NCBI GenBank assembly: GCA_963705105.1
Contig: CAVPIW010000006.1
Span: forward strand, 704,001-768,000
Reading direction: 5' to 3'
Length of the DNA: 64,000 nt
DNA from: an uncultured Nitrospiraceae bacterium
GTDB taxonomy: Bacteria > Nitrospirota > Thermodesulfovibrionia > Thermodesulfovibrionales > Dissulfurispiraceae
The position numbers were made by a program, and so were the translations under genes. The notes under the pieces are model-generated. The model did not search any database, was not told where the DNA came from, and saw only the letters and a list, made by a program, of their open reading frames with translations. This document shows positions 14,370-35,822 of the stretch, one piece after another; the stretch's first letter is position 1, and each line of letters begins with the position of its first letter.

Positions 14370-15998
14370 ATGAAATATAAGGACAAGACAAAAGAGGAAC
14401 TTATGAGTGAACTGGCAGAACTCCGTCACCGCATCGAGGATTTGGAGGCGGAAGCAACCAAACGCAGGACTGCCGAGGAGGCGCTGAAGGTATCGGAAAT
14501 CCGTTATCGGCGGCTCTTTGAAACTGCGCAAGACGGGATTGTTCTTCTCGATGCAGACACGGGACAGATACTCGACGTTAACCCGTTTCTGATAAGGATG
14601 CTTGGGTACTCACATGAGGATTTTCTGGGAAAAAAACTCTGGGAAATCGGTCCTTTCAGGGACATTGCAGCATCCAGACTCCTGTTTTCGGAATTGCAGA
14701 CGAAGGGGTATGTACGGTACGAACATTTGCCGCTCGAAACAAGAGACGGTCGTCTCATGGATGTCGAATTCGTCAGTAATGTCTATCTTGTTGACCATAG
14801 CAAAATTATCCAGTGTAACATCCGCGACATCTCTTTGCGGAAACAGGCAGAGGATGCGCTCCGGAAGGCATATGATGAGATGGACCTGCGCGTGAAGGAA
14901 CGGACTGAAGATTTGGTCGAAGCAAACCGGCAGCTCTTGCGGGAAGTAGAGGAACGCAAGAAGGCAGAGGAGTCACTCCGGGAAACGCTCAATGAAATCA
15001 GTGAGTTAAAAAGCAAATTGCATGAGGAGAACCTGTACCTTCTGGAAGAAATCAATCTGTTGCACTCACACAAGGAGATAGTAGGCAACAGTGAAGAGAT
15101 CAGGGCCGTTTTGAGGCAGATAGAACAGGTGGCGCCGACGGAATCGACGGTTTTGATCCAGGGAGCAACCGGCACCGGAAAGGAATTGCTCGCCCATGCA
15201 ATCCATAACCTGAGCGCCCGCAAAGGCCGGCTCATGATTAAGGTCAACTGTGCCGCCCTGCCGCCGACCCTCATCGAAAGTGAACTGTTCGGTCGCGAGA
15301 AAGGCGCTTTTACCGGCGCGCTGTCGAGGCAAATAGGCCGTTTTGAGCTTGCAGATGCTTCAACAATTTTTCTGGATGAGGTCGACACCTTGCCTCTGGA
15401 AGTGCAGGCCAAGCTGCTTCGGGTGCTGGAGAGCGGTGAGTTTGAGCGCCTGGGCAGCCCCCGGACCGTGAAGGTCGACATCAGAATCATTTCGGCGACG
15501 AACCGCGATCTTGCCGGGCTGGTCAGCGAGGGCAAGTTCCGGGAAGACCTTTATTACCGCTTGAACGTTTTTCGGATTACCGTTCCGCCCCTTCGGGAGC
15601 GCCGGGAGGACATACTGCCGCTCATGTGGTCTTTTGTGCAGGAATTCAGCAAGAGGATGGGGAAGCGGATCGAATCAATACCGCAGCAGGACGTTGAAGC
15701 CCTGCAAGCCTATCCCTGGCCGGGCAACGTAAGGGAACTGAGGAATGTGATCGAGCGTGCGATGATTATAACCTCCGGACCGAAGCTTCACGTGGAAGTA
15801 CCGAAGATTGCGGAGTCAAAGACGGACAAATGCAGCACCCTCGAAGAGGCGGAGAAACGGCACATTATCGAGGCCATGAACACCGCCGGATGGCGGGTAA
15901 GCGGCAAGGACGGTGCGGCAGAGATTTTAGGTCTTAACGCGAAGACACTCGAATCGAAGATGCAAAGGCTGGGCATCCAAAGAAGCAAGCCCCGTTAG
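14370..15998 (+). CDS. PAS-domain sigma54-dependent enhancer-binding protein (NtrC/FhlA family)
   Basis: PAS (RYRRLFETAQDGIVLLD), coiled coil, AAA+ GATGTGKELLA, GAFTGA, FLDEV, WPGNVREL, Fis-type HTH; start 14370 or 14331. Confidence 0.95.
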   Translation: MKYKDKTKEELMSELAELRHRIEDLEAEATKRRTAEEALKVSEIRYRRLFETAQDGIVLLDADTGQILDVNPFLIRMLGYSHEDFLGKKLWEIGPFRDIAASRLLFSELQTKGYVRYEHLPLETRDGRLMDVEFVSNVYLVDHSKIIQCNIRDISLRKQAEDALRKAYDEMDLRVKERTEDLVEANRQLLREVEERKKAEESLRETLNEISELKSKLHEENLYLLEEINLLHSHKEIVGNSEEIRAVLRQIEQVAPTESTVLIQGATGTGKELLAHAIHNLSARKGRLMIKVNCAALPPTLIESELFGREKGAFTGALSRQIGRFELADASTIFLDEVDTLPLEVQAKLLRVLESGEFERLGSPRTVKVDIRIISATNRDLAGLVSEGKFREDLYYRLNVFRITVPPLRERREDILPLMWSFVQEFSKRMGKRIESIPQQDVEALQAYPWPGNVRELRNVIERAMIITSGPKLHVEVPKIAESKTDKCSTLEEAEKRHIIEAMNTAGWRVSGKDGAAEILGLNAKTLESKMQRLGIQRSKPR

Positions 15999-16033
15999 AG
16001 ACCAGCGGTCTCCCACGGGGTGAGAAGAATTTC

Positions 16034-16181
16034 CCGACATATCAGGAGACTCCTGATATATCAGAAACCGGCATCCGGTCACAACACCAATCTCTCATCG
16101 TCGTCTTCCCCTGACATCTCAATGTTTTCAACATTTCAGAGCATTCTGTCCCGGCAACACAGTCCTGGCATACATTCTGCT
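16034..16181 (+). promoter_or_regulatory. Tandem palindromic UAS plus sigma54 promoter, copy 1
   Basis: CCGACATATCAG-GAGACTC-CTGATATATCAG (16034-16064); TGGCATACATTCTGCT (GG-N10-GC) at 16166-16181. Confidence 0.8.
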
Positions 16182-16264
16182 TTTTTATTACCGTAACGGG
16201 TTCTCTTCTGATACGGTGAAGGCGTCAACCGGAGAGGTCCGATGTCGGAATCCGAGGAGGGCGG

Positions 16265-16615
16265 GTGGACGCGAAAATAAAGATACTTGTGATACTAAGG
16301 ATGATTGTCCGGCCCGATAGGCGGAGTGATTTTTTGGAAACGATGCGGGGGATGCTCGAACCCGTGCGGGTCGAAAGGGGCTGCCTGAGTTACCGTCTCT
16401 ATGAAGACGTGGAAGACGGAAATGCCTTCGTCCTGGTGGAGGAATGGGAGACACAGAAAGATCTTGAGCGCCACATCGGTACGGAGAATCAGCAGCGGCT
16501 GCTCACGCTCATGGATCTTCTGAGCGAGCAACCTGAATTGCGGTTCAACACTGTGTCGCACACGGCGGGTATGGAGCTCATAGGAGATGTCCTCAAGGCA
16601 TGTGGACCGGGATGA
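16265..16615 (+). CDS. Antibiotic biosynthesis monooxygenase (ABM/YgiN-like) domain protein
   Basis: VRVERGCLSYRLYED..FVLVEEWET..LERH pattern; GAGGAG RBS before GTG. Confidence 0.85.
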   Translation: MDAKIKILVILRMIVRPDRRSDFLETMRGMLEPVRVERGCLSYRLYEDVEDGNAFVLVEEWETQKDLERHIGTENQQRLLTLMDLLSEQPELRFNTVSHTAGMELIGDVLKACGPG

Positions 16616-16689
16616 GATGGGGAAGGACATGCTGCAGGGGTTGATGTACGCACGTGAGGCATGAGGTCGTAGAACAAAAGGAGGTTACT

Positions 16690-16839
16690 ATGCTCTGGAC
16701 GATCTTTGTGATACTTTTAGTGCTTTGGATGTTGGGGCTGGTGAGCGGTTACACGATCGGCGGATTCATTCATATCCTGCTGGTCATTGCTGTTATCGTG
16801 GTGCTGATCAGAATCATCCAGGGGCGAAGACCTGTGTAA
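16690..16839 (+). CDS. lmo0937-family small membrane protein, copy 1
   Basis: MLWTIFVILLVLWMLGLVSGYTIGGFIHILLVIA; AGGAGG RBS. Confidence 0.9.
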   Translation: MLWTIFVILLVLWMLGLVSGYTIGGFIHILLVIAVIVVLIRIIQGRRPV

Positions 16840-16901: not shown

Positions 16902-17216
16902 ATGAAGAAGGTTATTTTGTTGTCAGTGTTAGCGGTTTTCGGATTGGCCTTGTTTTCGGGCTGCGCCTCTATGACGGGCAGAACGACAGGCGAGTATATC
17001 GATGACTCAAACATTACCACGGAAGCGAATGCGATAATCGTCAAGGACCCGGACGCCCAGTATATGAAGATCGATGTCTCCTCTACGGCCGGAAATGTCG
17101 TTCTCGCCGGTTTCATACATGACAAGAAGGCTGAGGAGCGTATCGTAGCACAGATCAGGCAGATCAAGGGCGTGAAATCCGTGAAGAGCAACTTGAAGGT
17201 GGAAGCGAAGAAGTAG
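16902..17216 (+). CDS. BON-domain (OsmY-like) lipoprotein, copy 1
   Basis: Lipobox FSGC, TTGEYIDDSNIT, VVLAGF, IKGVKSVKSNL; GGAGG RBS. Confidence 0.9.
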   Translation: MKKVILLSVLAVFGLALFSGCASMTGRTTGEYIDDSNITTEANAIIVKDPDAQYMKIDVSSTAGNVVLAGFIHDKKAEERIVAQIRQIKGVKSVKSNLKVEAKK

Positions 17217-17372: not shown

Positions 17373-17564
17373 ATGCCCCTGATTCAATTAGTGATTGTTT
17401 TGGTTGTCGTCGGGGTGGTCCTATGGGTGATTAACAGCTACATACCGATGCAATCTACCATAAAGAAAATTTTAAATGTGGTCGTGGTTATTGCAGTGAT
17501 TGTCTGGCTATTGAGCGTCTTCGGACTCATAGGAAACCTCTCAACAATCCGTATCGGGAAGTGA
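17373..17564 (+). CDS. Small two-TM membrane protein (Thivi_2564-like)
   Basis: MPLIQLVIVLVVVGVVLWVINSYIPMQSTIKKILNVVVVIAVIVWLL; AGGAG RBS. Confidence 0.8.
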   Translation: MPLIQLVIVLVVVGVVLWVINSYIPMQSTIKKILNVVVVIAVIVWLLSVFGLIGNLSTIRIGK

Positions 17565-17565
17565 A

Positions 17566-17776
17566 CCTTATCGTTGCAATACACTCCCGGGAAAGGCGGG
17601 GGTATGCGCCGAAAACCTTGATGCGGCGACACCTGTATCAAAACGAGAGATGAACTATATGCCAATGGTCGATGACACAAAGAGTGGAATCCTGAAACAC
17701 GAAGCTGACGAGGCGTATCGTCGCCTTCAGCAAGGCTTTGAGGCGCTTCCCCCCGCCTTTTCATGCAACAGAAAGG
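17566..17776 (+). mobile_element. MITE copy with 4-bp TSD TGAA
   Basis: TGAA at 17562-65 (includes the upstream stop codon) and 17777-80. Confidence 0.85.
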
Positions 17777-17828: not shown

Positions 17829-19706
17829 ATGAACCTGCAACGACGATATCCGATCGGCGCCGAGTTGCAGCCGAACGGGGGCGTCCATTTTCGCGTCTGG
17901 GCGCCTCGACCGAAGAAATTGGAAGTGGTGCTGGAGGCTGGTCCCGGAGCGCCGGCGACGGTACGACTGAAACAGCAGGCGGACGGATACTTTGCGGGCC
18001 TGGTCCCGCAGGCCGCTGAGGGCACCCGATATCGCTTCCGGCTGGATGACGCCGGCTGTTTTCCTGACCCGGCGTCCCGGTATCAGCCGGACGGGCCCCT
18101 CGGAGCGTCTCAGGTGGTGGATCCTTCGGGTTTCGGCTGGAACGACAGCGGGTGGCAGGGCGCCGGCCTGGCGGGCCAGGTCATTTACGAAATGCACATC
18201 GGGACCTTCACGCAAGAAGGGACATGGTTGGCAGCTCAGCGGGAATTCGCAGAGTTGGCTGACTGCGGCATCACCCTGCTCGAAGTAATGCCTGTGGCTG
18301 ATTTTCCCGGCCGTTTCGGATGGGGCTACGACGGAGTCGGGCAGTTCGCTCCGGTCCGGCTGTATGGCGAGCCGGACGATTTCCGCCGTTTCGTGGATGA
18401 GGCTCATCGCGCCGGCCTGGGGGTGATACTCGACGTGGTATATAACCATTTCGGCCCGGACGGGAATTACATGAGCGAGTTTTCGCCCGACTATTTCACC
18501 GACAAGTACAAGGGTGAGTGGGGTGAGCCCGTCAACTTCGATGGCGGAAAGGCAGGTCCGGTGCGCGAATTCTTCCTCACAAACGCCGCTTACTGGATCG
18601 AGGAGTTCCACATCGACGGACTGAGGCTGGACGCCACACAGCATTTTTTCGACGCCTCGCCGGAAAACATCATGGCAGCCATCGGAAATTGCGTGCGGGA
18701 AGCGGCGCGAGGACGAAAGACGATCATCGTGGCGGAGAACGAGCCACAACTCACGAATCTGGTGCGTCCGACCGAGAGCGGCGGCTACGGGCTGGACGCT
18801 CTGTGGAACGACGACTTCCATCACAGCGCCATAGTCGCGATGACGGGGCGCAACGAAGCGTACTACGTCGACTACCTGGGCAAGCCGCAGGAGTTCATAT
18901 CGATGGTAAAGTACGGCTTTCTCTACCAGGGACAGCGATACATATGGAATAAGCAGCGCCGCGGCATACCCGGTCTCAGGCTGGCGCCGGCGAAATTCAT
19001 AACGTATATTCAGAATCACGACCAGATCGCCAATTCCGGCCGTGGCGAACGTGTGCAATTCATGACCAGCCCCGGGCGGCTGAGGGCGATGACCGCGCTC
19101 ATGCTGCTCGCGCCTGGAACCCCCATGCTCTTTCAAGGGCAGGAGTTCGCCTCGTCAAGCCCGTTCTATTATTTTGCGGACCACAAGCCTGATCTCGCCA
19201 GGCTGGTGGAGGAGGGGCGAGCGAAGTCTCTGGCGCGATTCCGTAGTCTGGCCACGGGCGAGATGCTGCCATACCTGGCCGACCCGGCGAATCCCTCTAC
19301 ATTCGAGCGGTGCAAGCTTGATTTCAGCGAGCGCGAACGCAACCGGCACATGTACGATTTGCATAAGGACCTGCTGCGTTTGCGCCGCGAAGATCCCGTC
19401 TTCAGCGCACAGAAGCCGGGCGGCGTCGATGGGGCCGTACTCGCCGACGAGTGCCTGATGCTGCGTTATTTCGGCGAGGCGGGTGACGACCGCCTGCTGC
19501 TGGTGAACTTCGGACGTGATCTGCATCTGGACCCCGCGCCGGAGCCGCTGCTCGCACCGCCGGACGGAATGATGTGGCAGACACTGTGGTCGAGCGAGGA
19601 TCCCCGGTACGGCGGCAGCGGTACACCCCCGCTCGATTCCGAAGACAACTGGCGCATACCGGGGCATGCCGCCGTAGCCGTGTATCCAACGGAGAGGGGC
19701 GAGTAA
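17829..19706 (+). CDS. treZ: Malto-oligosyltrehalose trehalohydrolase (GH13)
   Basis: FRVWAP, PDPASRYQPDG, YEMHIGTFT, WGYDGV, LDVVYNHFGPDGNY, DGLRLDAT, QNHDQIAN, PMLFQGQE. Confidence 0.95.
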   Translation: MNLQRRYPIGAELQPNGGVHFRVWAPRPKKLEVVLEAGPGAPATVRLKQQADGYFAGLVPQAAEGTRYRFRLDDAGCFPDPASRYQPDGPLGASQVVDPSGFGWNDSGWQGAGLAGQVIYEMHIGTFTQEGTWLAAQREFAELADCGITLLEVMPVADFPGRFGWGYDGVGQFAPVRLYGEPDDFRRFVDEAHRAGLGVILDVVYNHFGPDGNYMSEFSPDYFTDKYKGEWGEPVNFDGGKAGPVREFFLTNAAYWIEEFHIDGLRLDATQHFFDASPENIMAAIGNCVREAARGRKTIIVAENEPQLTNLVRPTESGGYGLDALWNDDFHHSAIVAMTGRNEAYYVDYLGKPQEFISMVKYGFLYQGQRYIWNKQRRGIPGLRLAPAKFITYIQNHDQIANSGRGERVQFMTSPGRLRAMTALMLLAPGTPMLFQGQEFASSSPFYYFADHKPDLARLVEEGRAKSLARFRSLATGEMLPYLADPANPSTFERCKLDFSERERNRHMYDLHKDLLRLRREDPVFSAQKPGGVDGAVLADECLMLRYFGEAGDDRLLLVNFGRDLHLDPAPEPLLAPPDGMMWQTLWSSEDPRYGGSGTPPLDSEDNWRIPGHAAVAVYPTERGE

Positions 19707-19812: not shown

Positions 19813-22266
19813 ATGAACCGATTTGTTTGTATCCATGGGCACTTTTATCAACCTCCCCGGGAAAGCCCCTGGCTGGAGGCCATTGAGATCCAGGATTCGG
19901 CATTCCCCTACCACGACTGGAACGAGAGGATCACCGGAGAATGCTATGCGGCCAACGCCGTGTCGAGGATCTGGGATACGGAAGGACGAATCGCCCAACT
20001 GGTGAACAATTATGCCAGTATAAGCTTCAACTTCGGTCCGACTGTCTTGCTCTGGATGCAGCATTACGCCACCGAAGCCTATGAGGCAATTTTAGAGGGC
20101 GACCGGCAGAGCCTGGAAAAATTCTCCGGTCATGGAAATGCCTTGGCCCAAGCCTACAATCACATGATCCTGCCGCTGGCCAGCAGCCGCGACAAGAACA
20201 CCCAGATTATCTGGGGAATAAAAGATTTTGAATATCGCTTTGGACGCAAGCCGGAAGGGTTGTGGCTCCCGGAGACGGCGGTAGACCTGGAAACCCTGGA
20301 CCTCATGGCACAACACGGCATTGGCTTTGCCATACTTGCCCCCAGGCAGGCAAGCCGGGTTCGGCCCATTGATGGTAAGGAATGGCAGGACGTGAGTGGT
20401 GGAAGAATCTATCCTGCCTTAGCCTACAGGGTGTCGCTGCCGTCGGGCCGCACCATGAGCCTGTTCTTTTACGACGGTCCCATTGCCCAGGCCCTGGCAT
20501 TTGAAGGATTGCTCGACAACGGCGAGGCATTCGCCAACCGGCTGCTGTCCGCCTTCGCCGACGACTCTCCTCGCCTGGTCCACATTGCCACGGATGGCGA
20601 AAGCTATGGGCATCATCATCGCAACGGCGACATGGCCCTGGCGCACGCCCTCCATTACATTGAGTCCAACGGACTGGCGCAGGTGACGAATTATGGCCGG
20701 TACCTGGAGGATCATCCACCGGCTTTCGAAGTGGAGATCTTTGAAAACAGCTCGTGGAGCTGCGAGCACGGCATCGAACGTTGGAGGTCCGATTGCGGGT
20801 GCAACAGCGGCGGCCACCCGGGTTGGAACCAGGGTTGGCGGGCCCCCCTGCGTGCGGCCCTGGACTGGCTCCGAGATGCGGTGAATCCGGCTTTTGAACA
20901 AGTGGCCGGACAGTTTCTGACCGATCCCTGGGCGGCCCGCGACGACTACATCGACATCATCGTGGATCGATCACCCGAGCGCATCAGTGCGTTTATGACC
21001 CGTCACGCAACCCGTCCCTTAAACTCCGGGGACGAGATCACGGTCCTGAAACTCATGGAACTCCAGCGCCACTTAATGCTCATATACACCAGTTGCGGTT
21101 GGTTTTTTGACGAGCTTTCCGGGCTTGAGACGGTTCAGAACATCAAATATGCCGGCAGAGTGCTGCAGTTGGCCGACCAGCTTTTCAGCGACTCCTTCGA
21201 ACCCGCCTTTCTCGAACACCTTGAACTGGCAAAGAGCAACATATCTGAATACCGTGACGGCCGCACCATATATGAGAAATTGGTCAGGCCTGCCATGCTC
21301 GACATGAAAGACGTGGGCGCCCACTATGCCTTAAGCTCACTCTTTCAGGACGCCGGCGAAGGCGGCTCGATCTATGCGTATTCCGCCACCCGGGAGGACT
21401 ACCGCAGTTTTCAGGTCGGAGTCTCAAGGCTGGTGATCGGGCGGGCCACGGTCACTTCAGAGGTTACGCGCGTATCCTCCAGCTTGTGCTTTGGCGTTCT
21501 GCATCTTGGTGATCACAGTATCGCCTGCGGCACCGGTGAATATCAGGGCGCGCAAAAATATGAAGCGCTGGCCGAAGAGATATCAGCGGCTTTCGCCGGG
21601 GCCGACTTCCCGAAGACCATACTTCTGCTGGGTAAATACTTCGGGACGTCTACGTACTCTCTGACCTCGTTGTTTGCCGATGAGCGGCGCAGAGTCCTGA
21701 GCATCATCATGGAGCCGACTCTGAGAGAGGCCGAAGCTGCCTATAGCTCGATTTATGAGCACCATGCTCCCTTGATCCGTTTTCTGACCGGGTCCGGCAT
21801 GCCACGGCCCCCGGTCCTGTCGGTCGCCGCGGACTTGTGCCTGAATGCCAAGCTTCGCGGGGTGGTTCAAGGGGACGGACTCGACCCCGAAGTCGTCAGA
21901 CCTCTTATGGAAGAAGCCCGTTTGGCCGGCGCAACTCTGAACGCGGCTGCTCTGGGCCTGTTACTGGCCGTCAACCTTGAACGTCTGGCCGAACAACTTT
22001 CCGAGCAGCCTGACGACCTGACTCGCCTGGAGAGGCTGAATAAGGCTGCACAACTGGTCCGGACCCTGCCGTTCGGGGTTAATCTCTGGAAAACTCAGAA
22101 TATCTGCTACAAGCTCCTTCACGCCCATTGTCACGATTTCAAGGAGAAGGCCGGCCAGGGCGATCAAAACGCGCAGGAATGGCTGCGCCAGTACACGGTC
22201 CTGGCAGAGAATTTTTTGCTGCGGGTGCCCACATGCCCTGAAAACGGCAAAGCTGCAAATGGATAG
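19813..22266 (+). CDS. GH57-family glycoside hydrolase with DUF3536-type C-terminus
   Basis: IHGHFYQPPRE, YNHMILPL, GLWLPETAVD, ATDGESYGHH, YTSCGWFFDE. Confidence 0.9.
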   Translation: MNRFVCIHGHFYQPPRESPWLEAIEIQDSAFPYHDWNERITGECYAANAVSRIWDTEGRIAQLVNNYASISFNFGPTVLLWMQHYATEAYEAILEGDRQSLEKFSGHGNALAQAYNHMILPLASSRDKNTQIIWGIKDFEYRFGRKPEGLWLPETAVDLETLDLMAQHGIGFAILAPRQASRVRPIDGKEWQDVSGGRIYPALAYRVSLPSGRTMSLFFYDGPIAQALAFEGLLDNGEAFANRLLSAFADDSPRLVHIATDGESYGHHHRNGDMALAHALHYIESNGLAQVTNYGRYLEDHPPAFEVEIFENSSWSCEHGIERWRSDCGCNSGGHPGWNQGWRAPLRAALDWLRDAVNPAFEQVAGQFLTDPWAARDDYIDIIVDRSPERISAFMTRHATRPLNSGDEITVLKLMELQRHLMLIYTSCGWFFDELSGLETVQNIKYAGRVLQLADQLFSDSFEPAFLEHLELAKSNISEYRDGRTIYEKLVRPAMLDMKDVGAHYALSSLFQDAGEGGSIYAYSATREDYRSFQVGVSRLVIGRATVTSEVTRVSSSLCFGVLHLGDHSIACGTGEYQGAQKYEALAEEISAAFAGADFPKTILLLGKYFGTSTYSLTSLFADERRRVLSIIMEPTLREAEAAYSSIYEHHAPLIRFLTGSGMPRPPVLSVAADLCLNAKLRGVVQGDGLDPEVVRPLMEEARLAGATLNAAALGLLLAVNLERLAEQLSEQPDDLTRLERLNKAAQLVRTLPFGVNLWKTQNICYKLLHAHCHDFKEKAGQGDQNAQEWLRQYTVLAENFLLRVPTCPENGKAANG

Positions 22267-22284
22267 AAGACGGGGAAGTCTCTC

Positions 22285-25137
22285 ATGAATATGCCGACTG
22301 CGACCTATCGGATTCAATTCAATCCTGCATTCGGCTTTCAGGCCGCGCAGCCGGTCATTTCCTATCTGGCGGACCTGGGTATATCCGACCTGTACGCTTC
22401 TCCTATATTCAAAGCCGTCAAGGGCAGCCTCCACGGCTATGATGTGGTTGACCCCAATCACCTGAATCCTGAGTTGGGAGGGCTCTCTGACCTGGAGAGT
22501 CTGGCAGCGGAGTTGAAAGCGTACAACCTGGGGTGGATTCAGGATATCGTTCCGAATCATATGGCGATGGATTCGGACAATCGGCTGCTGATGGATATTA
22601 TGGAGAATGGTCCCGGTTCCCGGTACTTTCAGTTTTTCGACGTGGACTGGGATTATCCGGCCGCCAGCCTCAACAAGAGGATTCTGGCGCCATTTCTCGG
22701 CTGGTTCTATGGGGCATGTCTCGAAGATGGAGAGATCGCCCTCCAGTACGGTCCTGACGGCTTCAAGGCGGCTTATCACAACCTCTCTTTCCCGTTACGA
22801 ATCGAAACGTATCTCAATCTTTTCCACAACTTGCCCCGGCTAAAAAAGAAACTTGCCGAGGACGATTTCGACTTTATCAAGCTTTTGGGCATCCTCTACG
22901 TCTTGAAGACGCTTTCTTCCATCAATGAGGCGGAGGAGCGCAATAACCAGATAGCATTCATCAAGCGCACCCTGTGGGAACTCTACAATAGCAATGGCGT
23001 AATAAAAACGTTTGTTGATGAAAACGTGCGGACCTTCAATGGTGAAAAGGGGAAGGCCGAGAGTTTCAACCTTCTTGACGACCTTCTTTCCCAACAAGTC
23101 TTCAGGCTTTCATTTTGGAAAGTGGCCGCGGAAGAAATTAATTATCGCCGCTTTTTTTGTGTGAATGGGCTGATTTCACTAAGGGTTGAAGACGAGCACG
23201 TCCTGAACGACACGCACGGCCTGATTTTCGATCTCATTGAAAAACGAGTCGTCACCGGTGTAAGGATTGATCATGTCGACGGGCTGTACGATCCGGCAAA
23301 CTATCTGCAAAGAGTGAGAGAAAAAGTGCCTGCAAACTATATAATTGTTGAAAAAATACTCAATCTTCAGGAAGATCTTCCACCTTCCTGGCCGGTCCAG
23401 GGAACCACCGGCTATGATTTTACAAATTATGTCAATGAGTTGTTTTGCCAAAAGGAAAATGAGCGGGCATTTAACAGAATATATGCCGGAATAACGGGCT
23501 TGAAGAATTCTTATGAAGATGTCGTACGTGACAACAAAAAAATGATAATTCAGGAAGATATGGCGAGCGATGTCCACAACCTCGCCCAACTCCTGAAGAA
23601 TATCTCCAGCCGGGACCGTCATGGAAGCGACATAACCCTGAATGCGCTGCAAAGGGCCTTGACCGAAGTTCTGGCAGTGTTTCCGGTATACCGGACCTAC
23701 ATCAGCCGGGTCGTGGTCTCGGACGACGACAGGAAGTACATTTTGGCGGCGGTGAACCGGGCCGGAGCCAATTTCCCCGCCTTATTACATGGATTTACGT
23801 TCGTACGAAGATTCCTTCTCCTGGACTTTCCCGATTATGTTTCTGAGGAAGAGAAGCGGGACTGGCTCCATTTTGCCATGAGGTTTCAACAACTTACCGG
23901 GCCGGTCATGGCGAAGGGAGTGGAAGATACCACACACTATGTGTACAACCGGCTCTTGTCACTCAATGAGGTGGGCGGACGGCCGGGGCACTTCGGCTGC
24001 TCGCTCGAAGAATTCCACACCTTCAACACGAAGAAAAGAGACTTGTGGCCGTATTCTTTAAACGCGACATCGACTCACGATACCAAAAGAGGCGAAGACG
24101 CCCGCGCCAGAATTAATGTATTGTCCGAGATGCCGGACGAGTGGCTGAAGAAACTCCGGACCTGGATCAAGATAAACCAGGGCGAGAAAAAGCGCCTCCG
24201 CGGCTCAGCCGTTCCGGATAGAAACGACGAGTATTTCTTATACCAGACGCTGATTGGCGCCTGGCCGTTTTCAGATGCCGGGTATCCCGAGTTCATTGAA
24301 AGAATTAAGAGTTATATCGTCAAGGCCGTCCGGGAGGCCAAAGTCCATACGGCGTGGTTGAAACCCGACACTGAGTATGAAAACGCTTACGTCTCATTCA
24401 CCGAAAAGATACTGACACGCTCACGATCCAACGCGTTTCTGAAAGATTTCATCCCCTTTTGCAGGAGAGTTTCTCACTACGGGATACTCAACTCCCTCTC
24501 GCAGACACTGATCAAGATTACCTCACCCGGTGTGCCTGACTTCTATCAGGGATCCGAACTATGGGACCTGAGCCTGGTGGATCCGGACAATCGCAGGCCG
24601 GTGGATTTTGAAAAAAGGCGGGCCATGCTGGCCGGCATCCGCGAACAGGAGGATACTGATATCGGCCGACTGGTCCGGGATCTCCTGTCCGCGAGAGAGG
24701 ATGGCAGGATTAAACTCTTTCTCATGTATCGGGCGCTCAAGGCAAAAAAAGCGGACCGGGAGATCTTCCGTTCCGGCGCTTATCTTCCCCTTGAGTCGGC
24801 GGGAAGATTCAGGAGCCATGTGATTGCCTTTGCCTGGAGGTATCAGCGGAAATGGGCCCTGGTCATTGCCCCGAGGTTTCCCAGCCACCTGATTCAAGAG
24901 GGAGATTTTCCTCTGGGAAAACACGTATGGCAGGACACAGAGGTGATAATGCCGAACGGGGCGCCTGCTGCCTGGCGAAATACCATCACCAGCGAGGTGC
25001 TTTCTGCGGGCAGGGCATTGCCTGTCGGGGATGCATTGTTCAGTTTCCCGGTGGCGCTGCTCATGGGCGAAGGAAAGGAAGAGTATGTACCTTGTGGTCA
25101 TAGAAAGGCGGGGCGAAGCGCCTCAAAGCCTTGCTGA
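22285..25137 (+). CDS. treY: Malto-oligosyltrehalose synthase (C-terminus extended by MITE)
   Basis: PTATYRIQF, SLHGYDVVD, DIVPNHM, INYRRFF, RIDHVDGLYDP, STHDTKRGED, PGVPDFYQGSE, SLVDPDNRRPVD. Confidence 0.95.
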   Translation: MNMPTATYRIQFNPAFGFQAAQPVISYLADLGISDLYASPIFKAVKGSLHGYDVVDPNHLNPELGGLSDLESLAAELKAYNLGWIQDIVPNHMAMDSDNRLLMDIMENGPGSRYFQFFDVDWDYPAASLNKRILAPFLGWFYGACLEDGEIALQYGPDGFKAAYHNLSFPLRIETYLNLFHNLPRLKKKLAEDDFDFIKLLGILYVLKTLSSINEAEERNNQIAFIKRTLWELYNSNGVIKTFVDENVRTFNGEKGKAESFNLLDDLLSQQVFRLSFWKVAAEEINYRRFFCVNGLISLRVEDEHVLNDTHGLIFDLIEKRVVTGVRIDHVDGLYDPANYLQRVREKVPANYIIVEKILNLQEDLPPSWPVQGTTGYDFTNYVNELFCQKENERAFNRIYAGITGLKNSYEDVVRDNKKMIIQEDMASDVHNLAQLLKNISSRDRHGSDITLNALQRALTEVLAVFPVYRTYISRVVVSDDDRKYILAAVNRAGANFPALLHGFTFVRRFLLLDFPDYVSEEEKRDWLHFAMRFQQLTGPVMAKGVEDTTHYVYNRLLSLNEVGGRPGHFGCSLEEFHTFNTKKRDLWPYSLNATSTHDTKRGEDARARINVLSEMPDEWLKKLRTWIKINQGEKKRLRGSAVPDRNDEYFLYQTLIGAWPFSDAGYPEFIERIKSYIVKAVREAKVHTAWLKPDTEYENAYVSFTEKILTRSRSNAFLKDFIPFCRRVSHYGILNSLSQTLIKITSPGVPDFYQGSELWDLSLVDPDNRRPVDFEKRRAMLAGIREQEDTDIGRLVRDLLSAREDGRIKLFLMYRALKAKKADREIFRSGAYLPLESAGRFRSHVIAFAWRYQRKWALVIAPRFPSHLIQEGDFPLGKHVWQDTEVIMPNGAPAAWRNTITSEVLSAGRALPVGDALFSFPVALLMGEGKEEYVPCGHRKAGRSASKPC

Positions 25138-26077: not shown

Positions 26078-27327
26078 CATCTATTGAAGATTATGCAGCA
26101 GTGACCGGAGAAAACGTGATCGATCGCCTCCGTCAACTTGCCAGGCCATTAAGGGGCACGAAGGTAGTGCACGTCAACTCCACGTATGTAGGTGGCGGTG
26201 TCGCGGAAATTCTGAGCAAGCTGGTGCCTCTCCAGAAAGATCTGGGCCTCGATGTGCGGTGGGAAGTAATTCGGGGTGAAGAGGCGTTTTTCCAGGTCAC
26301 CAAGGGCTTCCACAACGCCCTGCAGGGCATACCCGTCCAGATGGGGGACGGGTTTTTCAAGGTCTACGAGGAAACGGGCGCGCAAAACTCGGAAGAGCTC
26401 CGTTCGATCCTTGAAGAAGCCGACATAGTTATCATACATGATCCGCAGCCGCTGCCCCTTTTGAGGTCATGCCCGAATCGAAAGGGCAAGTGGATCTGGC
26501 GGTGTCATATCGACCTGAGCCATCCCTATCGTCCGGTGTGGCAATACTTGCGCAACTATGTCATGGAATACGATGCGAGTATTTTTTCCCTGGCGGATTT
26601 TGCCCAACCCTTGCCACACATCCAGTATCTGATGCAGCCGAGTATCGATCCTCTCAGCGAAAAGAACATGGATCTGACCCCGGATGTGGTCCATGCCGCC
26701 AAACTTCAATTCGGCCTGGACCCCGATAGACTGATAATGCTCCAGGTCTCACGCTTTGACCGGTTCAAGGATCCCTTAGGCGTCATCAGATCATATCGAC
26801 TGGTCAAGTCTTTCGCTCCGTCACTGCAATTGGTCCTCGCAGGCGGTGAAGCCACCGATGACCCCGAAGGCGCCGCGGTTCTGGCAGAGGTTCGAAATGA
26901 GGCCGGCGGAGACAAAGATGTCCACGTGCTGCTTTTGCCTCCGGATGCCCATGTCACGATTAATGCCCTGCAGCGAGGCGCGGACCTGGTGGTGCAAAAG
27001 TCTCTCAAAGAAGGATTCGGCCTCACCGTGACTGAGGCCCTGTGGAAAGGAAAACCCGTGATCGGCGGCGATGCAGGAGGCATTCGGCTTCAGATTGTGA
27101 ACCATCACACGGGTTTCCTGGTTAAGACTCCGGAGGGAGCTGCTTTGCGCGCCAGATATCTCCTGCGTCACCCCGATAAAGCCCTGGAAATGGGTCATAC
27201 AGCAAAAGAATTGGTCCGGCAAAATTTTCTGCTGACCAGAAATTTACAGGAGTATTTGAGCATTTTCGTGGCACTTATATATGGAGACCAGGAGCGGATA
27301 GAACTGCAACTGAAATCCGCACCGTGA
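26074..27327 (+). CDS. treT: GT4 glycosyltransferase, trehalose synthase TreT-like
   Basis: HVNSTYVGGGVAEIL, HNALQG, IHDPQP, WRCHIDLS, QVSRFDRFKDPLGVI, EGFGLTVTEALWK. Confidence 0.85.
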   Translation: MTSIEDYAAVTGENVIDRLRQLARPLRGTKVVHVNSTYVGGGVAEILSKLVPLQKDLGLDVRWEVIRGEEAFFQVTKGFHNALQGIPVQMGDGFFKVYEETGAQNSEELRSILEEADIVIIHDPQPLPLLRSCPNRKGKWIWRCHIDLSHPYRPVWQYLRNYVMEYDASIFSLADFAQPLPHIQYLMQPSIDPLSEKNMDLTPDVVHAAKLQFGLDPDRLIMLQVSRFDRFKDPLGVIRSYRLVKSFAPSLQLVLAGGEATDDPEGAAVLAEVRNEAGGDKDVHVLLLPPDAHVTINALQRGADLVVQKSLKEGFGLTVTEALWKGKPVIGGDAGGIRLQIVNHHTGFLVKTPEGAALRARYLLRHPDKALEMGHTAKELVRQNFLLTRNLQEYLSIFVALIYGDQERIELQLKSAP

Positions 27328-27338: not shown

Positions 27339-27405
27339 CATCAATCCACAGACGCTTGAATCGGGGATGCAAAGACCGGGCATCCAAAGAAATAAGCCCC
27401 GTTAG
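27339..27405 (+). pseudogene. Remnant of the 3' end of the sigma54 activator gene
   Basis: acgcttgaatcggggatgcaaagaccgggcatccaaagaaataagccccgttag matches ~15945-15998; the downstream gagacc..ggtctc hairpin is also copied. Confidence 0.8.
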
Positions 27406-27470
27406 AGACCGACGGTCTCCAACGGGGCGCTGGTCTCGGCGTTTTCTCTTACGGGTCCAAAAAAGAATTC

Positions 27471-27617
27471 CTGACATGTCAGGAGACTCCTGACATATCA
27501 GAATCCGGCGCCTTTCACAGCATCATTCCCCCATCGCAGCTTTCGCTGAAGTTTCCAATGATTCCAAAGTCTTAGAGAACCCTTTCTTTCAACGCAGCTC
27601 TTAGCACGGTTTATGCT
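27471..27617 (+). promoter_or_regulatory. Tandem palindromic UAS plus sigma54-like promoter, copy 2 (-24 GG reads AG)
   Basis: CTGACATGTCAG-GAGACTC-CTGACATATCAG (27471-27501); TAGCACGGTTTATGCT at 27602-27617. Confidence 0.7.
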
Positions 27618-27662: not shown

Positions 27663-27743
27663 ATGGACACCATACTTATAGTCATTATTTTGATTTTGAT
27701 CTTCGGCGGCGGCGGGTTCTACTGGACGAGACGGGGCCGTTAG
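27663..27743 (+). CDS. 26-aa membrane peptide (DUF3309-like), copy 1
   Basis: MDTILIVIILILIFGGGGFYWTRRGR; AAGGAG RBS; paralog at 33500. Confidence 0.75.
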   Translation: MDTILIVIILILIFGGGGFYWTRRGR

Positions 27744-27816: not shown

Positions 27817-27996
27817 ATGAAATCCAGCATGAAAGACAAAGTGGAAGGCACGCTTCACGAAGCAAAGGGAAAGATCAAGGAAATGGCCGGGGACCTGACC
27901 GATAATCCAAAGTTGGAAGCCGAAGGCGCCGCAGAAAAGATAGCCGGCAAAGTTCAGAAAAAGATGGGCCAGGTCAAGAAGGTGCTGGGGAAGTAG
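27817..27996 (+). CDS. csbD: CsbD-family general stress protein, copy 1
   Basis: MKSSMKDKVEGTLHEAKGKIKEMAGDLTDNPKLEAEGAAEKIAGKVQKKMGQVKKVLGK; AAGGAGG RBS. Confidence 0.9.
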   Translation: MKSSMKDKVEGTLHEAKGKIKEMAGDLTDNPKLEAEGAAEKIAGKVQKKMGQVKKVLGK

Positions 27997-28201: not shown

Positions 28202-28417
28202 ATGTCAATTTTAAAGAATATTATTTTTTGTTTCTTCATCTGCGTGATTATCGTTTCTTTTACCGCCTGTACAAAAGAAGGGCCTGCCGAGCGTGCAGGA
28301 AAGAAAGTAGACGAGACTGTAGACAAAACCGGGGACAAGATAAAAGAGTCGACTGAGAAAGTAGGTGACAAAATTGAGAAAACTGGAGAAAAAGTGAAGG
28401 AATCCACTAAGAAATGA
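28202..28417 (+). CDS. Small hydrophilic stress lipoprotein
   Basis: Lipobox FTAC then KEGPAERAGKKVDE and K/E-rich repeats; AAGGAGG RBS. Confidence 0.8.
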   Translation: MSILKNIIFCFFICVIIVSFTACTKEGPAERAGKKVDETVDKTGDKIKESTEKVGDKIEKTGEKVKESTKK

Positions 28418-28880: not shown

Positions 28881-29117
28881 ATGAAAAGGAAGCAGGGTAT
28901 ACATGATGATATTACAAGGGTCGCGTACGAACTTTATGAAAAAAGAGGCAGGGCTCACGGGCATGAGTTAGAGGATTGGTTAGAGGCAGAAAAGATAGTG
29001 ATGGAAAACCGTGAGAGACATGCAAGGGAAACCAAGCAGGAAGTTGATGTTGTCGCGAAACCAAAGGTCGGGTTTCGGCGGACTGTTAAGAGAGAAGGGT
29101 TTTATAAGAAAAGTTGA
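28881..29117 (+). CDS. DUF2934-like small protein
   Basis: ITRVAYELYEKRGRAHGHELEDWLEAE motif; GGAGG RBS. Confidence 0.85.
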   Translation: MKRKQGIHDDITRVAYELYEKRGRAHGHELEDWLEAEKIVMENRERHARETKQEVDVVAKPKVGFRRTVKREGFYKKS

Positions 29118-31544: not shown

Positions 31545-31725
31545 TTCAGTATCCCTCTCTCTTGCCTTGCCCATTCTTGAACCATCACACATAGGATGCC
31601 CTCCTTCTGACCCTATTTCTTAGCATGCTAGTATAAAGTGATTTCGTATGTCAAGGACACAATGCTACTTTGTCAACGCAATGCTACTGAGTGGTCTCAG
31701 ATGCACAGGCCGGCACGTTTGCTGC

Positions 31726-32287: not shown

Positions 32288-32971
32288 TTACGCGCCGGAA
32301 GACTTAATTGACAAGAGCACTGCAAAGAACTGCAAGACGCTCCCGGCGAGCACAAACACATGCCAGATAGCATGGTGATAAGGCAGTCCTTCCCACAGAT
32401 AGAAGATGATACCTGTGGTGTAGGTAACTCCACCTGCCACGAGGAGTACCAGGGCGTTCGCCGGGATAGAGGCTGCCAATGGCTTGATCGCAAAAACCGC
32501 TGCCCATCCCATCGTCAGGTAAAGGATGAGTCTCAAGGAGGAGAGACGTCTCAGAGGGGTGAGTTGAAGCACGATACCGAACATTGCAAGACCCCAGACA
32601 AAACCGAATAGAGACCAGCCCCAGACCCCTTGCAGACTGACAAGGGTGAAGGGCGTATAGGACCCGGCGATGAGAAGATAGATTGACGAATGATCCAGTA
32701 CCCTGAGAACGCTCTTGGCCTGCTGGTTTTGAATGCTGTGATAGAGGGTGGATGAGATATAGAGAAGTATGAGCGTAGCGCCATAGATGCCACAGCTCAC
32801 GACATGACGAACACTTCCGAAGACGGCTGCATGCTCAATGAGCATTCCCAGCCCCACGAAGGCCAAGATCACCCCGATCCCATGTATGATGCTGTGGGCG
32901 ATTTCTTCTGCCCTACTGTAATTCATGGTATCCTGATCCGCCGTGACAAAATTGTATACGTACCATATCAT
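32288..32971 (-). CDS. Hemolysin III / PAQR family membrane protein
   Basis: EEIAHSIIHGIG, SSTLYHS, LDHSSIYLLIAGSYTPF, HAIWHVFV; true start may be 32926. Confidence 0.9.
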   Translation of the reverse strand: MIWYVYNFVTADQDTMNYSRAEEIAHSIIHGIGVILAFVGLGMLIEHAAVFGSVRHVVSCGIYGATLILLYISSTLYHSIQNQQAKSVLRVLDHSSIYLLIAGSYTPFTLVSLQGVWGWSLFGFVWGLAMFGIVLQLTPLRRLSSLRLILYLTMGWAAVFAIKPLAASIPANALVLLVAGGVTYTTGIIFYLWEGLPYHHAIWHVFVLAGSVLQFFAVLLSIKSSGA

Positions 32972-33079
32972 TCTGCGTGCGCTGTGTCAATTGAGAGAAC
33001 AGTTGTTGCTCAGACTTCTCGATGAGGCTTTGGAAAAAAATCAGGAATACGAAAGCAGAAACGAACTCGTTTCAGGGTT

Positions 33080-33311
33080 GCCGCACAGGGGGCGGCTTAT
33101 GATTAAAGTCGACTGTGCCGCCCTGCCCCCCCCGGTCCGTGAAGGTCGACGTCAGACTCATTTCGGTGACGAACCGCGATCTTGTCAGGGTGGTCAGGGA
33201 GGGCGGGTGAGCGGTAAGGACGGAGCAGCAGAGATGTCAGGCATCAATCCAAAGACACTTGAGTCGAGGATGCAAAGACTGGGCATCCAAAGAAGCAAGA
33301 AGAATACCTGA
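33080..33311 (+). pseudogene. Internally deleted copy of the sigma54 activator gene
   Basis: Three fused pieces matching 14370-15998: GRLMIKVDCAALPP; gtgaaggtcgac..aaccgcgatctt (VKVD..NRDL); RVSGKDGAAE..KTLESRMQRLGIQRSK. Confidence 0.85.
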
Positions 33312-33454
33312 TATATCAGGAGACTCCTGATATATCAGAAGTCGACACCTTTCACCGTATCATTCCCCCATCGTTGCACTCGCTGAAGTTTCCAATGATT
33401 CCAAAGTCTTAGAGAACCCTTTCTTTCAACGCAGGCCGTGGCACAGCTTATGCT
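33308..33454 (+). promoter_or_regulatory. Tandem palindromic UAS plus sigma54 promoter, copy 3
   Basis: CTGATATATCAG-GAGACTC-CTGATATATCAG (33308-33338); TGGCACAGCTTATGCT at 33439-33454. Confidence 0.85.
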
Positions 33455-33499: not shown

Positions 33500-33586
33500 A
33501 TGAGCATGGAAATGATACTTATCATCATCCTTCTGATTTTGGTCTTCGGCGGCGGCGGGTTCTACTGGACGAGACGGGGCCGTTAG
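33500..33586 (+). CDS. 28-aa membrane peptide (DUF3309-like), copy 2
   Basis: MSMEMILIIILLILVFGGGGFYWTRRGR; AAGGAG RBS. Confidence 0.75.
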   Translation: MSMEMILIIILLILVFGGGGFYWTRRGR

Positions 33587-33659
33587 GCGCCCAGACGAAG
33601 TTAATGCGGCTGACGCGCCAGGGTCGTCAGTCAGATCGAGATCCTAAAGGAGGAATACG

Positions 33660-33839
33660 ATGAAATCCAGCATGAAAGACAAAGTGGAAGGCACGCTTCA
33701 CGAAGCAAAGGGAAAGATCAAGGAAATGGCCGGGGACCTGACCGATAATCCAAAGTTGGAAGCTGAAGGCGCCGCAGAAAAGATAGCCGGCAAAGTTCAG
33801 AAAAAGATGGGCCAGGTCAAGAAGGTGCTGGGGAAGTAG
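33660..33839 (+). CDS. csbD: CsbD-family protein, copy 2
   Basis: Nearly identical to 27817-27996. Confidence 0.9.
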   Translation: MKSSMKDKVEGTLHEAKGKIKEMAGDLTDNPKLEAEGAAEKIAGKVQKKMGQVKKVLGK

Positions 33840-33982: not shown

Positions 33983-34132
33983 ATGCTCTGGACGATCTTT
34001 GTGATACTTTTGGTACTTTGGATGTTGGGGCTGGTGAGCGGTTACACGATCGGCGGATTCATTCATGTCCTGCTGGTCATTGCTGTTATCGTGGTGCTGA
34101 TCAACATTGTTCAGGGACGAAGACCTGTGTAA
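33983..34132 (+). CDS. lmo0937-family membrane protein, copy 2
   Basis: Nearly identical to 16690-16839. Confidence 0.9.
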   Translation: MLWTIFVILLVLWMLGLVSGYTIGGFIHVLLVIAVIVVLINIVQGRRPV

Positions 34133-34198
34133 ATAACTTCGAGGCGTTTCGCACCGCCTTTTCATACAACTGGTTGGAAAGTGGAGAAAGGAGGAGAA

Positions 34199-34762
34199 AT
34201 GAAGAAGGTTATTTTGTTGTCAGTGTTAGTGATTTTCGGATTGGCCTTGTTCTCGGGCTGCGCGTCTGTGCAAACATGGCCGGATTATGAACGGAGTGCA
34301 GAGAACAAGATGGTTGTCATCCAGGAGAAGATTGGGGAGGGGCTGAAAACCGGTGCTCTTTCCCCCGATCAGTCCCAGATGTTTCTGACGACGCTGAAGG
34401 GTATTCGAACGGACTATGCGGAACTGAGAGACAAAGGGGTCTACCGGAACGAGTGGGAAAGCCTTCATGGCAGACTTGATGCGCTTGGGGAAGAGATCAA
34501 CAGGGCGCTGGCCCGGACGACAAGAATTGAAGAACCGAGAAGCGGGGACAGGATTGTCGCACTCCAGAGGAGAATCGATGATGGAAGAATCAGCGGACGT
34601 CTGCCTCAGACGGAGGGCCGGGAAATTCAATCCAGACTTGACTCCATTCGGCGCGATTATTTACGGATGACGGAAGGAGGCAGATACACCACGAACGAGG
34701 AGAGAGCAGACATTTCCCGCAGGCTCGATTCATTGGAAATAGATCTAAATCGGTTCCGGTAG
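34199..34762 (+). CDS. Helical lipoprotein of unknown function
   Basis: Lipobox FSGC; two internal repeats (QEKIGEGLKTGALS / QRRIDDGRISGRLP ... RLD.L). Confidence 0.75.
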   Translation: MKKVILLSVLVIFGLALFSGCASVQTWPDYERSAENKMVVIQEKIGEGLKTGALSPDQSQMFLTTLKGIRTDYAELRDKGVYRNEWESLHGRLDALGEEINRALARTTRIEEPRSGDRIVALQRRIDDGRISGRLPQTEGREIQSRLDSIRRDYLRMTEGGRYTTNEERADISRRLDSLEIDLNRFR

Positions 34763-34860
34763 AATTTTTATTCGCGAAAACGGCCGGCTATGGTTTTGCC
34801 GCAGATCATGAATAAACCATGCAATCATCTGATTGCATGACGAAAGACAGGAGGAGAGAA

Positions 34861-35175
34861 ATGAAGAAGGTTATTTTGTTGTCAGTGTTAGCGGTTTTCG
34901 GATTGGCCTTGTTTTCGGGCTGCGCCTCTATGACGGGCAGAACGACAGGCGAGTATATCGATGACTCAAACATTACCTCGGAAGCGAATGCGATAATCGT
35001 CAAGGACCCGGACGCCCAGTATATGAAGATCGATGTCTCCTCTACGACCGGAAATGTCGTTCTCGCCGGTTTCATACATGACAAGAAGGCTGAGGAGCGT
35101 ATCGTAGCACAGATCAGGCAGATCAAGGGCGTGAAATCCGTGAAGAGCAACTTGAAGGTGGAAGCAAAGAAGTAG
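34861..35175 (+). CDS. BON-domain lipoprotein, copy 2
   Basis: Two amino-acid differences from 16902-17216. Confidence 0.9.
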   Translation: MKKVILLSVLAVFGLALFSGCASMTGRTTGEYIDDSNITSEANAIIVKDPDAQYMKIDVSSTTGNVVLAGFIHDKKAEERIVAQIRQIKGVKSVKSNLKVEAKK

Positions 35176-35275
35176 GCGGACAAGGGGGGGGCATTCCGTG
35201 AAAGCACTCCTCATGCATCCTGAATCCGCGGGGTGCCCCTTCTATTGCAGTGAGACAACGGAAAGAGGGAGCAAA

Positions 35276-35497
35276 ATGAAAACATACACGTTGATAGGCA
35301 TCATCCTTATCGTGATCGGAATCGTCACGTTCGTGTATCAGGGCATCACCTACACGACCAGGGAGAAGGTCGTCGATATCGGTCCCATCCGGATGACTGC
35401 CGAGAAGACGAAAACGGTTCCGCTGTCGCCGGTCCTGGGTGGCATTGCGCTCGTGGGCGGCATTGTCTTGCTGGTCATCGGAAACAAAAAGGGCTGA
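35276..35497 (+). CDS. Small two-TM membrane protein (DUF3185-like)
   Basis: IGIILIVIGIVTFVYQGITYTTREKVVDIGPI..PLSPVLGGIALVGG. Confidence 0.75.
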   Translation: MKTYTLIGIILIVIGIVTFVYQGITYTTREKVVDIGPIRMTAEKTKTVPLSPVLGGIALVGGIVLLVIGNKKG

Positions 35498-35534
35498 TGA
35501 GAGGAAACGTTTCAACTGCAAGGAGGTCGCTGTA

Positions 35535-35822
35535 ATGGACAAACGAAAGGCATACGAAGAAAAGCTTGATGCACAGCTGAAGGAATGGAACGCGCAGATC
35601 GATCTGCTCAAGGCCAGGGCGGACAAGGCCAGGGCCGAGGCGAAAATCGAATACTACAAAACCATCGAAGCCCTGCAGAGCAAGCAGAATGAGGCCGTGA
35701 CAAAGCTGCAGGAACTGAAGACCGCCGGCGATGAGGCATGGGAAGACCTCGTAACAGGGGCGGACAAGGCCTGGGATGAAGTCAAGGCAGCCTTCCACAA
35801 TGCGGCCTCAAAGTTCAAATAA
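35535..35822 (+). CDS. Coiled-coil stress protein (sll1863-like)
   Basis: MDKRKAYEEKLDAQLKEWNAQIDLLKARA..AGDEAWEDL..G.DKAW; AGGAGG RBS. Confidence 0.8.
   Translation: MDKRKAYEEKLDAQLKEWNAQIDLLKARADKARAEAKIEYYKTIEALQSKQNEAVTKLQELKTAGDEAWEDLVTGADKAWDEVKAAFHNAASKFK

Follow-up and report, generated by a model that had tools for sequence, protein, structure and literature searches.

A candidate sigma-54 enhancer-promoter cassette, copied from the end of its activator gene, in front of small envelope and stress-type genes in a Dissulfurispiraceae genome

The stretch of DNA addressed here, called the window throughout, is 64,000 nucleotides long and comes from an uncultured Nitrospiraceae bacterium of the Dissulfurispiraceae (assembly GCA_963705105.1, contig CAVPIW010000006.1, positions 704,001 to 768,000), with a genome of 4.2 Mb in 19 contigs. 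It holds the gene of a sigma-54 activator and, shortly after the end of that gene, a 31-bp site built from two 12-bp palindromes with a 7-bp spacer, followed by a sigma-54 promoter box. The copies of this palindrome in the genome, three of them in the window, are duplicates of a single cassette, which consists of the activator's 3' tail, the palindrome, a site resembling that of integration host factor (IHF) and the promoter. The best explanation is that one activator controls a group of small envelope and stress-type genes through these duplicated enhancer-promoter cassettes, and judging from sequence comparison we give this reading as a whole a probability of about 0.7.

In the proposed mechanism, the activator would bind the tandem palindrome just 3' of its own gene, IHF would likely bend the DNA between enhancer and promoter, and the bound activator would open the sigma-54 promoter 100 nt downstream. 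The gene-end cassette, duplicated before seven gene clusters, would thereby place small envelope and stress-type genes under one activator. New targets were probably gained by duplication of the activator region, with surplus coding sequence eroded and the enhancer and promoter retained. Lineages exchange the input module (a PAS, a receiver, a Kai-type PAS or no sensor at all), and the PAS domain of this protein therefore does not fix the signal. DNA binding, looping and transcription from the boxes are what we infer from this arrangement.

Seven copies of one cassette

A preliminary description of the window had read three tandem palindromes, and all three were found (Table 1). The genome-wide scan that it called for gave seven copies, four on contig C6 and three on contig C12, against a chance expectation of about 1e-7 palindrome pairs; no sites of intermediate quality, between 1 and 5 mismatches, turned up. 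The inner bases of the spacer prolong the symmetry of each arm while the 3-nt centre varies, and the site is therefore better read as two palindromes of about 16 bp. A GG-N10-GC box lies about 80-150 nt 3' of the paired sites in six of the seven copies. The preliminary description had given the same promoter geometry to all three window copies, which is right for copies 1 and 3, each with a TGGCAY-N6-TGC box; in copy 2 the invariant -24 GG is changed to AG, and its promoter is likely weak or silent. The genome encodes rpoN and an IHF-like subunit. It carries 257 sigma-54-like boxes, of which only five have the paired site, all of them cassette copies fitting the pattern; independent sites outside the cassette were thus looked for in the genome and none was found.

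The descent of the copies is written in the DNA that precedes them. Activator-homologous DNA stands before five of the six other copies, and the sixth retains about 20 nt of the activator tail. Three copies have two or three separated pieces of activator coding sequence, which fits duplication followed by internal deletions. Within the window, copy 2 follows a dead remnant of the gene end and copy 3 follows an open frame that contains such pieces. Copies 1 and 2 alone share a GC-rich hairpin of about 33 nt, inserted in the interval from activator stop to motif (15993-16025 and 27396-27428), and copy 2 is therefore traced to the present intact activator gene. The same pattern extends to relatives: among the 147 of 153 cassettes with enough upstream DNA, 48 end an intact activator, 61 follow an eroded tail of 10-269 nt and 38 have no remnant at the threshold, which no shuffled control reached. 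The recurrence pointed out in the preliminary description is accordingly real, but copies 2 and 3 follow eroded activator pieces and are products of duplication; the three window copies therefore do not count as independent evidence, and relatives were used to test function.

In bidirectional cassettes (L074, L102/L215, L189), a single palindrome is flanked on either side, at about 100 nt, by a sigma-54-like box, and L074 has a second, inverted copy of the spacer block. An element resembling a miniature inverted-repeat transposable element (MITE), with inverted ends of about 14 nt and 3-nt target repeats, is present in 179 near-full copies (444 matches) genome-wide and at about ten other intergenic places in the window; it lands on stop codons, as its target repeats are often TGA, TAA or TTA. 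As a vehicle of cassette duplication it was rejected, since no element lies within 700 nt upstream of any of the seven copies.

Conservation of the site beside related activators

The preliminary description had called the activator a PAS-AAA+-HTH protein (HTH, helix-turn-helix), and this identification stands: the PAS domain, Walker A and B motifs, GAFTGA, arginine finger and C-terminal HTH are present, and the N-termini of orthologues back the start at 14370. No other intact close copy exists in the genome, the next paralogue being 54% identical, and the activator's top NCBIfam match is FhlA (NF011958) at 394 bits against an equivalog cut-off of 830. The sigma-70-type site in front of the gene is a weak candidate, since the region's 12 such sites are close to the shuffle mean of 9.7.

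The evidence that the palindrome serves this activator comes from relatives; loci from the collection-wide motif and orthologue scans are those among the matches listed. Titled records with the motif are mostly Thermodesulfovibrionales or other Nitrospirota, and occurrence outside Nitrospirota rests on single loci. At 26 close-orthologue loci, picked by protein, the motif follows directly upon the gene in 21 and in a degenerate form in one, and in 15 of the 26 the TGA stop codon of the activator is the first TGA of the motif. Across the 301 genomes of the order, the motif occurs in 25 of the 27 with a close orthologue (one to seven copies) versus 8 of the 274 without, and a reversed-pattern control gave 0 matches. 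Missing conservation beside orthologous activators was what the preliminary description had named as a refutation, and the proposal survives: its claim that the motif is the activator's cognate site at sigma-54 promoters of stress-type small genes is upheld as a prediction.

The promoter keeps its distance to the motif. Of 104 motif-bearing loci, 97 have a sigma-54 box, which in 96 stands at a distance of 98-103 nt; on the other side only 3 of 104 have one, and two of these three belong to bidirectional cassettes. In an alignment of 17 of 30 protein-picked loci (the 13 left out were own, distant, offset, short or motif-less), column conservation reached 0.94 for the motif, ahead of the promoter (0.88), the spacer (0.77) and the DNA downstream (0.61). 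A hidden Markov model of the spacer alone, trained on motif-bearing cassettes, gave 37 matches in this genome and 20 other loci; 36 have the motif with at most two mismatches and one has an 8-nt spacer, and GG/GC is intact in 35 of the 36 evaluable boxes. The motif thus outlasts the decay of the gene tail. An IHF-like site, scored against the IHF consensus, occurs at a fixed position in 68 of 146 spacers versus 16.6 in shuffles.

More distant FhlA-clade activators also have a tandem site after the stop codon, and its sequence varies with the HTH. Helices of the NxKT type go with the quarter-site CTGA (91 of 100; 25 of 33 rows scored), KxTT with CCGA (23 of 28; 7 of 21 rows), TTLEA with CCAA (15 of 20; 5 of 10 rows) and PNTL with ACGA (7 of 8; 2 of 4 rows). 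This covariation supports cognate binding of the predicted site.

Several points weigh against this reading, besides the changed promoter of copy 2. The motif is missing directly after the stop in 4 of the 26 close orthologues, and these four sit among the 13 loci left out of the alignment. Eight motif-bearing genomes had no intact close orthologue found, in assemblies of 100-290 contigs, one of which has an orthologue fragment at a contig end. The 153 cassettes were de-duplicated by exact identity alone, and related genomes are non-independent samples. A scoring site is present in only 39 of the 68 rows of the four HTH classes; CTGA appears in one Nitrospirota clade and once on a long Bacteroidota branch, and because the classes mostly follow clades, the covariation rests on few independent changes. 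On balance the motif probably acts as this activator's enhancer, and the enhancer-promoter reading overall appears highly probable from these comparisons.

The genes behind the cassettes and the signal

The genes that follow the window copies are listed in Table 1. The family labels of the preliminary description held for CsbD, BON, lmo0937, sll1863, TreZ, GH57, TreY and TreT-like proteins; its DUF3309-like label did not hold for the peptide of 26-28 amino acids (aa), which has no Pfam match (a relative's copy) and no NCBIfam match (window copy 3).

Table 1. Coordinates of cassette elements and associated genes in the window
Feature	Position	Strand	Remark
Sigma-70-type promoter-like site TTGACA-17-TATATT, 5' of activator	14297..14325	+	11/12 matches
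FhlA-clade sigma-54 activator; coiled coil-PAS-coiled coil-AAA+ (GAFTGA)-Fis-type HTH	14370..15998	+	start codon set by orthologue N-termini
Palindrome copy 1, predicted enhancer, two 12-bp palindromes with 19-bp period	16034..16064		1 mismatch
IHF-like site(s), 2 mismatches each to the IHF consensus	16117..16138	+	position conserved across cassettes
Sigma-54 -24/-12 box, intact, 101 nt after copy 1	16166..16180	+	
ABM-family protein	16265..16615	+	activator's most widely conserved partner gene
lmo0937-family membrane protein	16690..16839	+	
BON-domain lipoprotein	16902..17216	+	
Thivi_2564-family membrane protein	17373..17564	+	
MITE-like element, about 215 nt, recent insertion	17561..17776		between copy-1 small genes and treZ
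TreZ	17829..19706	+	above cut-off; possible member of copy-1 transcript
GH57/DUF3536 glycoside hydrolase	19813..22266	+	
TreY	22285..25137	+	above TIGR02401 cut-off
DUF5752 protein	25406..26077	+	
TreT-like trehalose synthase	26074..27327	+	below NCBIfam equivalog cut-off
Dead remnant of activator 3' end with downstream hairpin	27340..27427	+	86% DNA identity to intact gene
Palindrome copy 2	27471..27501		
Degenerate sigma-54 box after copy 2	27602..27616	+	TAGCAC for TGGCAC
26-aa hydrophobic peptide	27663..27743	+	34 members among cassettes
CsbD	27817..27996	+	
Small hydrophilic lipoprotein-like protein	28202..28417	+	
DUF2934 protein	28881..29117	+	
122-codon frame with three internally deleted activator-copy pieces	32943..33311	+	stop codon is first TGA of palindrome copy 3
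Palindrome copy 3	33308..33338		
IHF-like site, 2 mismatches to the IHF consensus	33399..33411	+	
Sigma-54 -24/-12 box, intact, 100 nt after copy 3	33439..33453	+	
28-aa hydrophobic peptide	33500..33586	+	
CsbD	33660..33839	+	protein identical to 27817-27996
lmo0937/DUF5670 membrane protein	33983..34132	+	
Lipoprotein-like protein, no family	34199..34762	+	
BON-domain lipoprotein	34861..35175	+	
DUF3185-like membrane protein	35276..35497	+	below Pfam cut-off
sll1863-family stress protein	35535..35822	+	
AI-2E transporter and RNB-domain gene	35948..38665	+	possible continuation of copy-3 unit; both follow other cassettes too

Under a loose clustering, the genes behind the 153 cassettes fall most often into BON (66), ABM (46) and OmpA-family (35) proteins and a membrane peptide of about 27 aa (34), followed by CsbD (32), the lmo0937 family (27) and a small lipoprotein (27); AI-2E, DUF3309, CHRD, sll1863-type, Usp, PRC and YflT proteins are rarer. 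Each of the four csbD and three BON genes of this genome has a cassette within 2.2 kb upstream, and the motif occurs in 19 of 26 csbD-bearing genomes versus 33 of the 301 in the order. Genes for osmY-like BON proteins, yflT and treYZ are linked to general stress regulons. In Sphingopyxis, EcfG controls csbD directly (PMC7083833), and lmo0937 is lowered upon sigma-B inhibition (PMC3225968). A role in stress or stationary phase is therefore the favoured reading of these gene families, with somewhat better than even support, and induction under such conditions would be expected from them.

Other observations speak against so broad a role. In other genomes, the motif lies within 1.5 kb upstream in 14 of 28 csbD loci (14 of 20 in motif-bearing genomes). 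The ku gene, two ferritin genes and three osmC genes have neither site nor sigma-54 box upstream, many downstream genes are unassigned or have no known stress role, and lmo0937 is termed PrfA-regulated, its sigma-B link being only new (PMC3225968). Since ku, ferritins and osmC stand outside, we speak of a module of envelope and small-protein stress genes, not of a whole general-stress regulon. The general stress and desiccation response put forward in the preliminary description is narrowed accordingly: its csbD, BON and lmo0937-type genes remain, and the trehalose (tre) genes are rarely cassette-linked. The tre cluster is co-oriented with copy 1 and set apart from it by the MITE-like insertion, which is absent before treZ in an RNA-library contig of a near-identical strain. 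As treY or treT lies in only three of the other loci searched, membership in the copy-1 unit stands at about even odds. Shares in the RNA libraries are 0.05-0.16, and contigs of relatives span the small genes, with little upstream of the copy-3 promoter; being contigs, these data show no start sites, strand or level.

The most serious rival accepts the enhancer and promoter and sees an envelope or lifestyle module that is switched by whatever signal the local sensor receives, the stress genes merely sharing flexible islands. OmpA-family and unassigned lipoproteins are among the commonest cassette followers, sensor domains are freely swapped, oxidative and DNA-repair stress genes stand outside, and activators of this kind in more distant relatives stand ahead of ABM and unrelated exported proteins. 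However, no csbD or BON gene of the genome is without a cassette upstream, csbD and the motif go together across the order, and YflT, DUF3309, sll1863-type, PRC, Usp and CHRD genes recur there, so that we regard this rival as unlikely, though it deserves more weight than those set out below.

N-termini differ among orthologues whose AAA+ domains are 85-93% identical, and among 120 close homologues the same PAS is found in 52, a receiver in 28, other PAS types in 20 (three of them Kai-type) and no sensor in 20, some of which may be partial. The preliminary description had made wiring through a cytoplasmic PAS sensor the defining feature of the system; because input domains are swapped among close homologues, that point had to be given up. 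An Atlas search with the PAS region returned generic PAS clusters only, with no ligand hint. The Kai clock was considered as an obligate input and rejected for this order, as the kai genes of this genome (kaiC-kaiB-kaiB) lie about 290 kb from the activator and feed a kinase, and kaiB is found in 5 of 33 motif-bearing genomes versus 30 of 301 in the whole order. A kaiB gene adjoins the activator orthologue in 1 of 20 loci, and in two loci of another Nitrospirota family Kai-like genes, named by sequence resemblance, lie 5' of the activator. Behind the kaiC-kaiB-kaiB genes of this genome (locus L324, G000:C6:1004000-1013400) come a multi-PAS kinase of 1714 aa and a sigma-54 activator of the receiver type.

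The ABM protein accompanies activators across several site types, and it may have a feedback role. A complex prediction of the activator (coiled coil, AAA+, HTH) with two ABM chains, which addressed ABM as a feedback partner in the manner of PspA, scored 0.00, which is evidence neither way. Loci L400, L401 and L402 have two or three FhlA-clade activators in tandem, with ABM genes in between and exported-protein genes downstream, and in two of the three kaiC-kaiB-like genes lie 5' of the arrays. Elsewhere in this genome (L004:4035-7711, G000:C5) another FhlA-clade activator is followed by an ABM gene of its own; no tandem site is recognisable there, and a small two-gene module, toxin-antitoxin-like by the look of its sequence, lies between activator and ABM gene.

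Other readings of the palindrome and comparison with known systems

The palindrome could also act as RNA, as a hairpin that terminates or stabilises the 3' end of the activator message, with the extra copies carried as passengers of segmental duplication. The 31-mer does fold (z about -3 to -5), the changes 5C and 27G, on opposite sides of the dyad, are found together in 13 of 17 cases, and it is flagged as terminator-like on the minus strand. Yet the sense strand has no U-tract (at most one T among the 8 nt that follow, in 134 of 152), the motif is intact in copies that follow no intact gene, its distance to the sigma-54 box is fixed, and in other clades the halves follow the HTH type and are often direct repeats that would mispair. 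These features make an RNA hairpin very improbable.

Least probable of all is a site-specific recombination core that mobilises the cassette: tyrosine-recombinase cores resemble the 12-7-12 geometry, the promoter block is inverted-duplicated around the palindrome in a few loci (L074, L102) and two orthologue loci (L019, L033) break inside the first arm, but the spacer is nearly symmetric with a variable centre, where such cores would have an asymmetric conserved one, and no integrase is among the neighbour genes scanned. Exchange within the spacer would also make the flanks differ at the site itself, whereas the homology continues across it into the activator tail; its breakpoints, scattered 10-269 nt upstream, largely refute this reading.

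The enhancer-promoter cassette has precedents for each of its parts, namely sigma-54 enhancer promoters, general-stress markers and promoter reuse. Sigma-54 systems next to their bacterial enhancer-binding protein (NtrC, PspF, Desulfovibrio vulgaris) likewise combine an AAA+/GAFTGA/HTH activator with paired upstream sites. IHF-assisted looping is described at enhancer-dependent sigma-54 promoters (PMC7175178), and most sigma-54 promoters lie within 100 nt of the activator site (PMC4641369). Unlike in those systems, the predicted enhancer here often overlaps the activator stop codon, every site in the genome stems from a single duplicated cassette, and csbD, BON and lmo0937-type genes are the predicted targets. 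In D. vulgaris, DVU3305, the response regulator of two operons, bears the table label 'general stress response' (PMC4641369). FhlA and HyfR share with the present activator the best NCBIfam match, a similar coiled-coil linker and a long HTH; they differ in that our protein is below the cut-off, has PAS instead of GAF and has no hydrogenase or formate-hydrogenlyase targets, and its site is a 12-bp tandem pair, unlike the 14-bp TGWC-N6-GWCA palindrome of FhlA (PMC7658346).

The regulons of SigB, RpoS and EcfG share the markers csbD, BON/osmY, yflT and lmo0937 with the cassette genes, whose common control is predicted here. Those regulons use an alternative sigma-70 factor, whereas sigma-54 with an activator is predicted in this case, and ku and osmC, which are in the EcfG list, stand outside together with the ferritins. 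Eight of nine sigma-70 matches were scanned and none was above the RpoS or SigB cut-offs; four RpoD-like factors and several extracytoplasmic function (ECF) factors, untyped for EcfG, could take that part instead. The four RpoD-like factors are long (464-558 aa; L326-L329), and one is above the RpoD C-terminal cut-off. A Geobacter RpoN study reports RpoN elements missing from stress genes (PMC2725144).

Putative mobile promoters likewise involve homologous promoter blocks reused before different genes, with a criterion of 80% identity or more across 50 nt in front of genes that are not paralogues (PMC3575422). Cassette spacers are clearly homologous and average 70% identity (53-95%), and the first gene is common to five of the seven copies. 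Unlike in those promoters, as far as the accessible text describes them, the source here is the end of the regulator's gene, the unit is a full enhancer-IHF-promoter block, and the spread recurs over many genomes of one order. A literature search, which reached few subscription papers, found no description of this combination.

A wider possibility is a sigma-54-based replacement for the SigB, RpoS or EcfG response, built on an FhlA-clade activator with a plug-in sensor, a regulon that grows as the gene end is copied, and an HTH-to-DNA code (CTGA, CCGA, CCAA, ACGA); we regard it tentatively, at somewhat less than even chances. If true, the regulons of many uncharacterised 'formate hydrogenlyase activators' would be predictable from the DNA after their stop codons, and a gene set placed elsewhere under dedicated stress sigma factors would here answer to one activator. 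For stress-gene control in those anaerobic lineages of soil and sediment that lack RpoS and SigB and have no typed EcfG, there would be a specific regulator together with its site and promoter. The cassettes are a clear natural record of regulon growth by duplication, in which dead gene tails mark the source, and the HTH/site pairs would concern a large, mostly mis-annotated activator clade.

Searches of the window against Rfam and for plasmids gave zero matches. Between copies 2 and 3, at 30318-31592 on the minus strand, lies the gene of an ice-binding-like (DUF3494) protein with DUF7933 as well as an IPTL-CTERM tail, a similar gene standing after a cassette in locus L101. Downstream of the copy-3 genes and on the same strand (38722-47584, +) are ftsH, a B12-binding radical SAM protein, a glycogen-branching-type enzyme and a P-type ATPase; genes for comparable RNB-domain, radical SAM and ATPase proteins lie near the cassettes of contig C12. 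Further on, 50819-53785 (+) encodes an exported protein of 989 aa, rich in Cys/Asp repeats (MopE-type motif of Pfam), and contains 270-nt tandem units. Upstream of the activator, at 2759-10701 on the minus strand, a polyketide/fatty-acid-synthase-like sequence is broken into several short frames, which suggests frameshifts or assembly errors.

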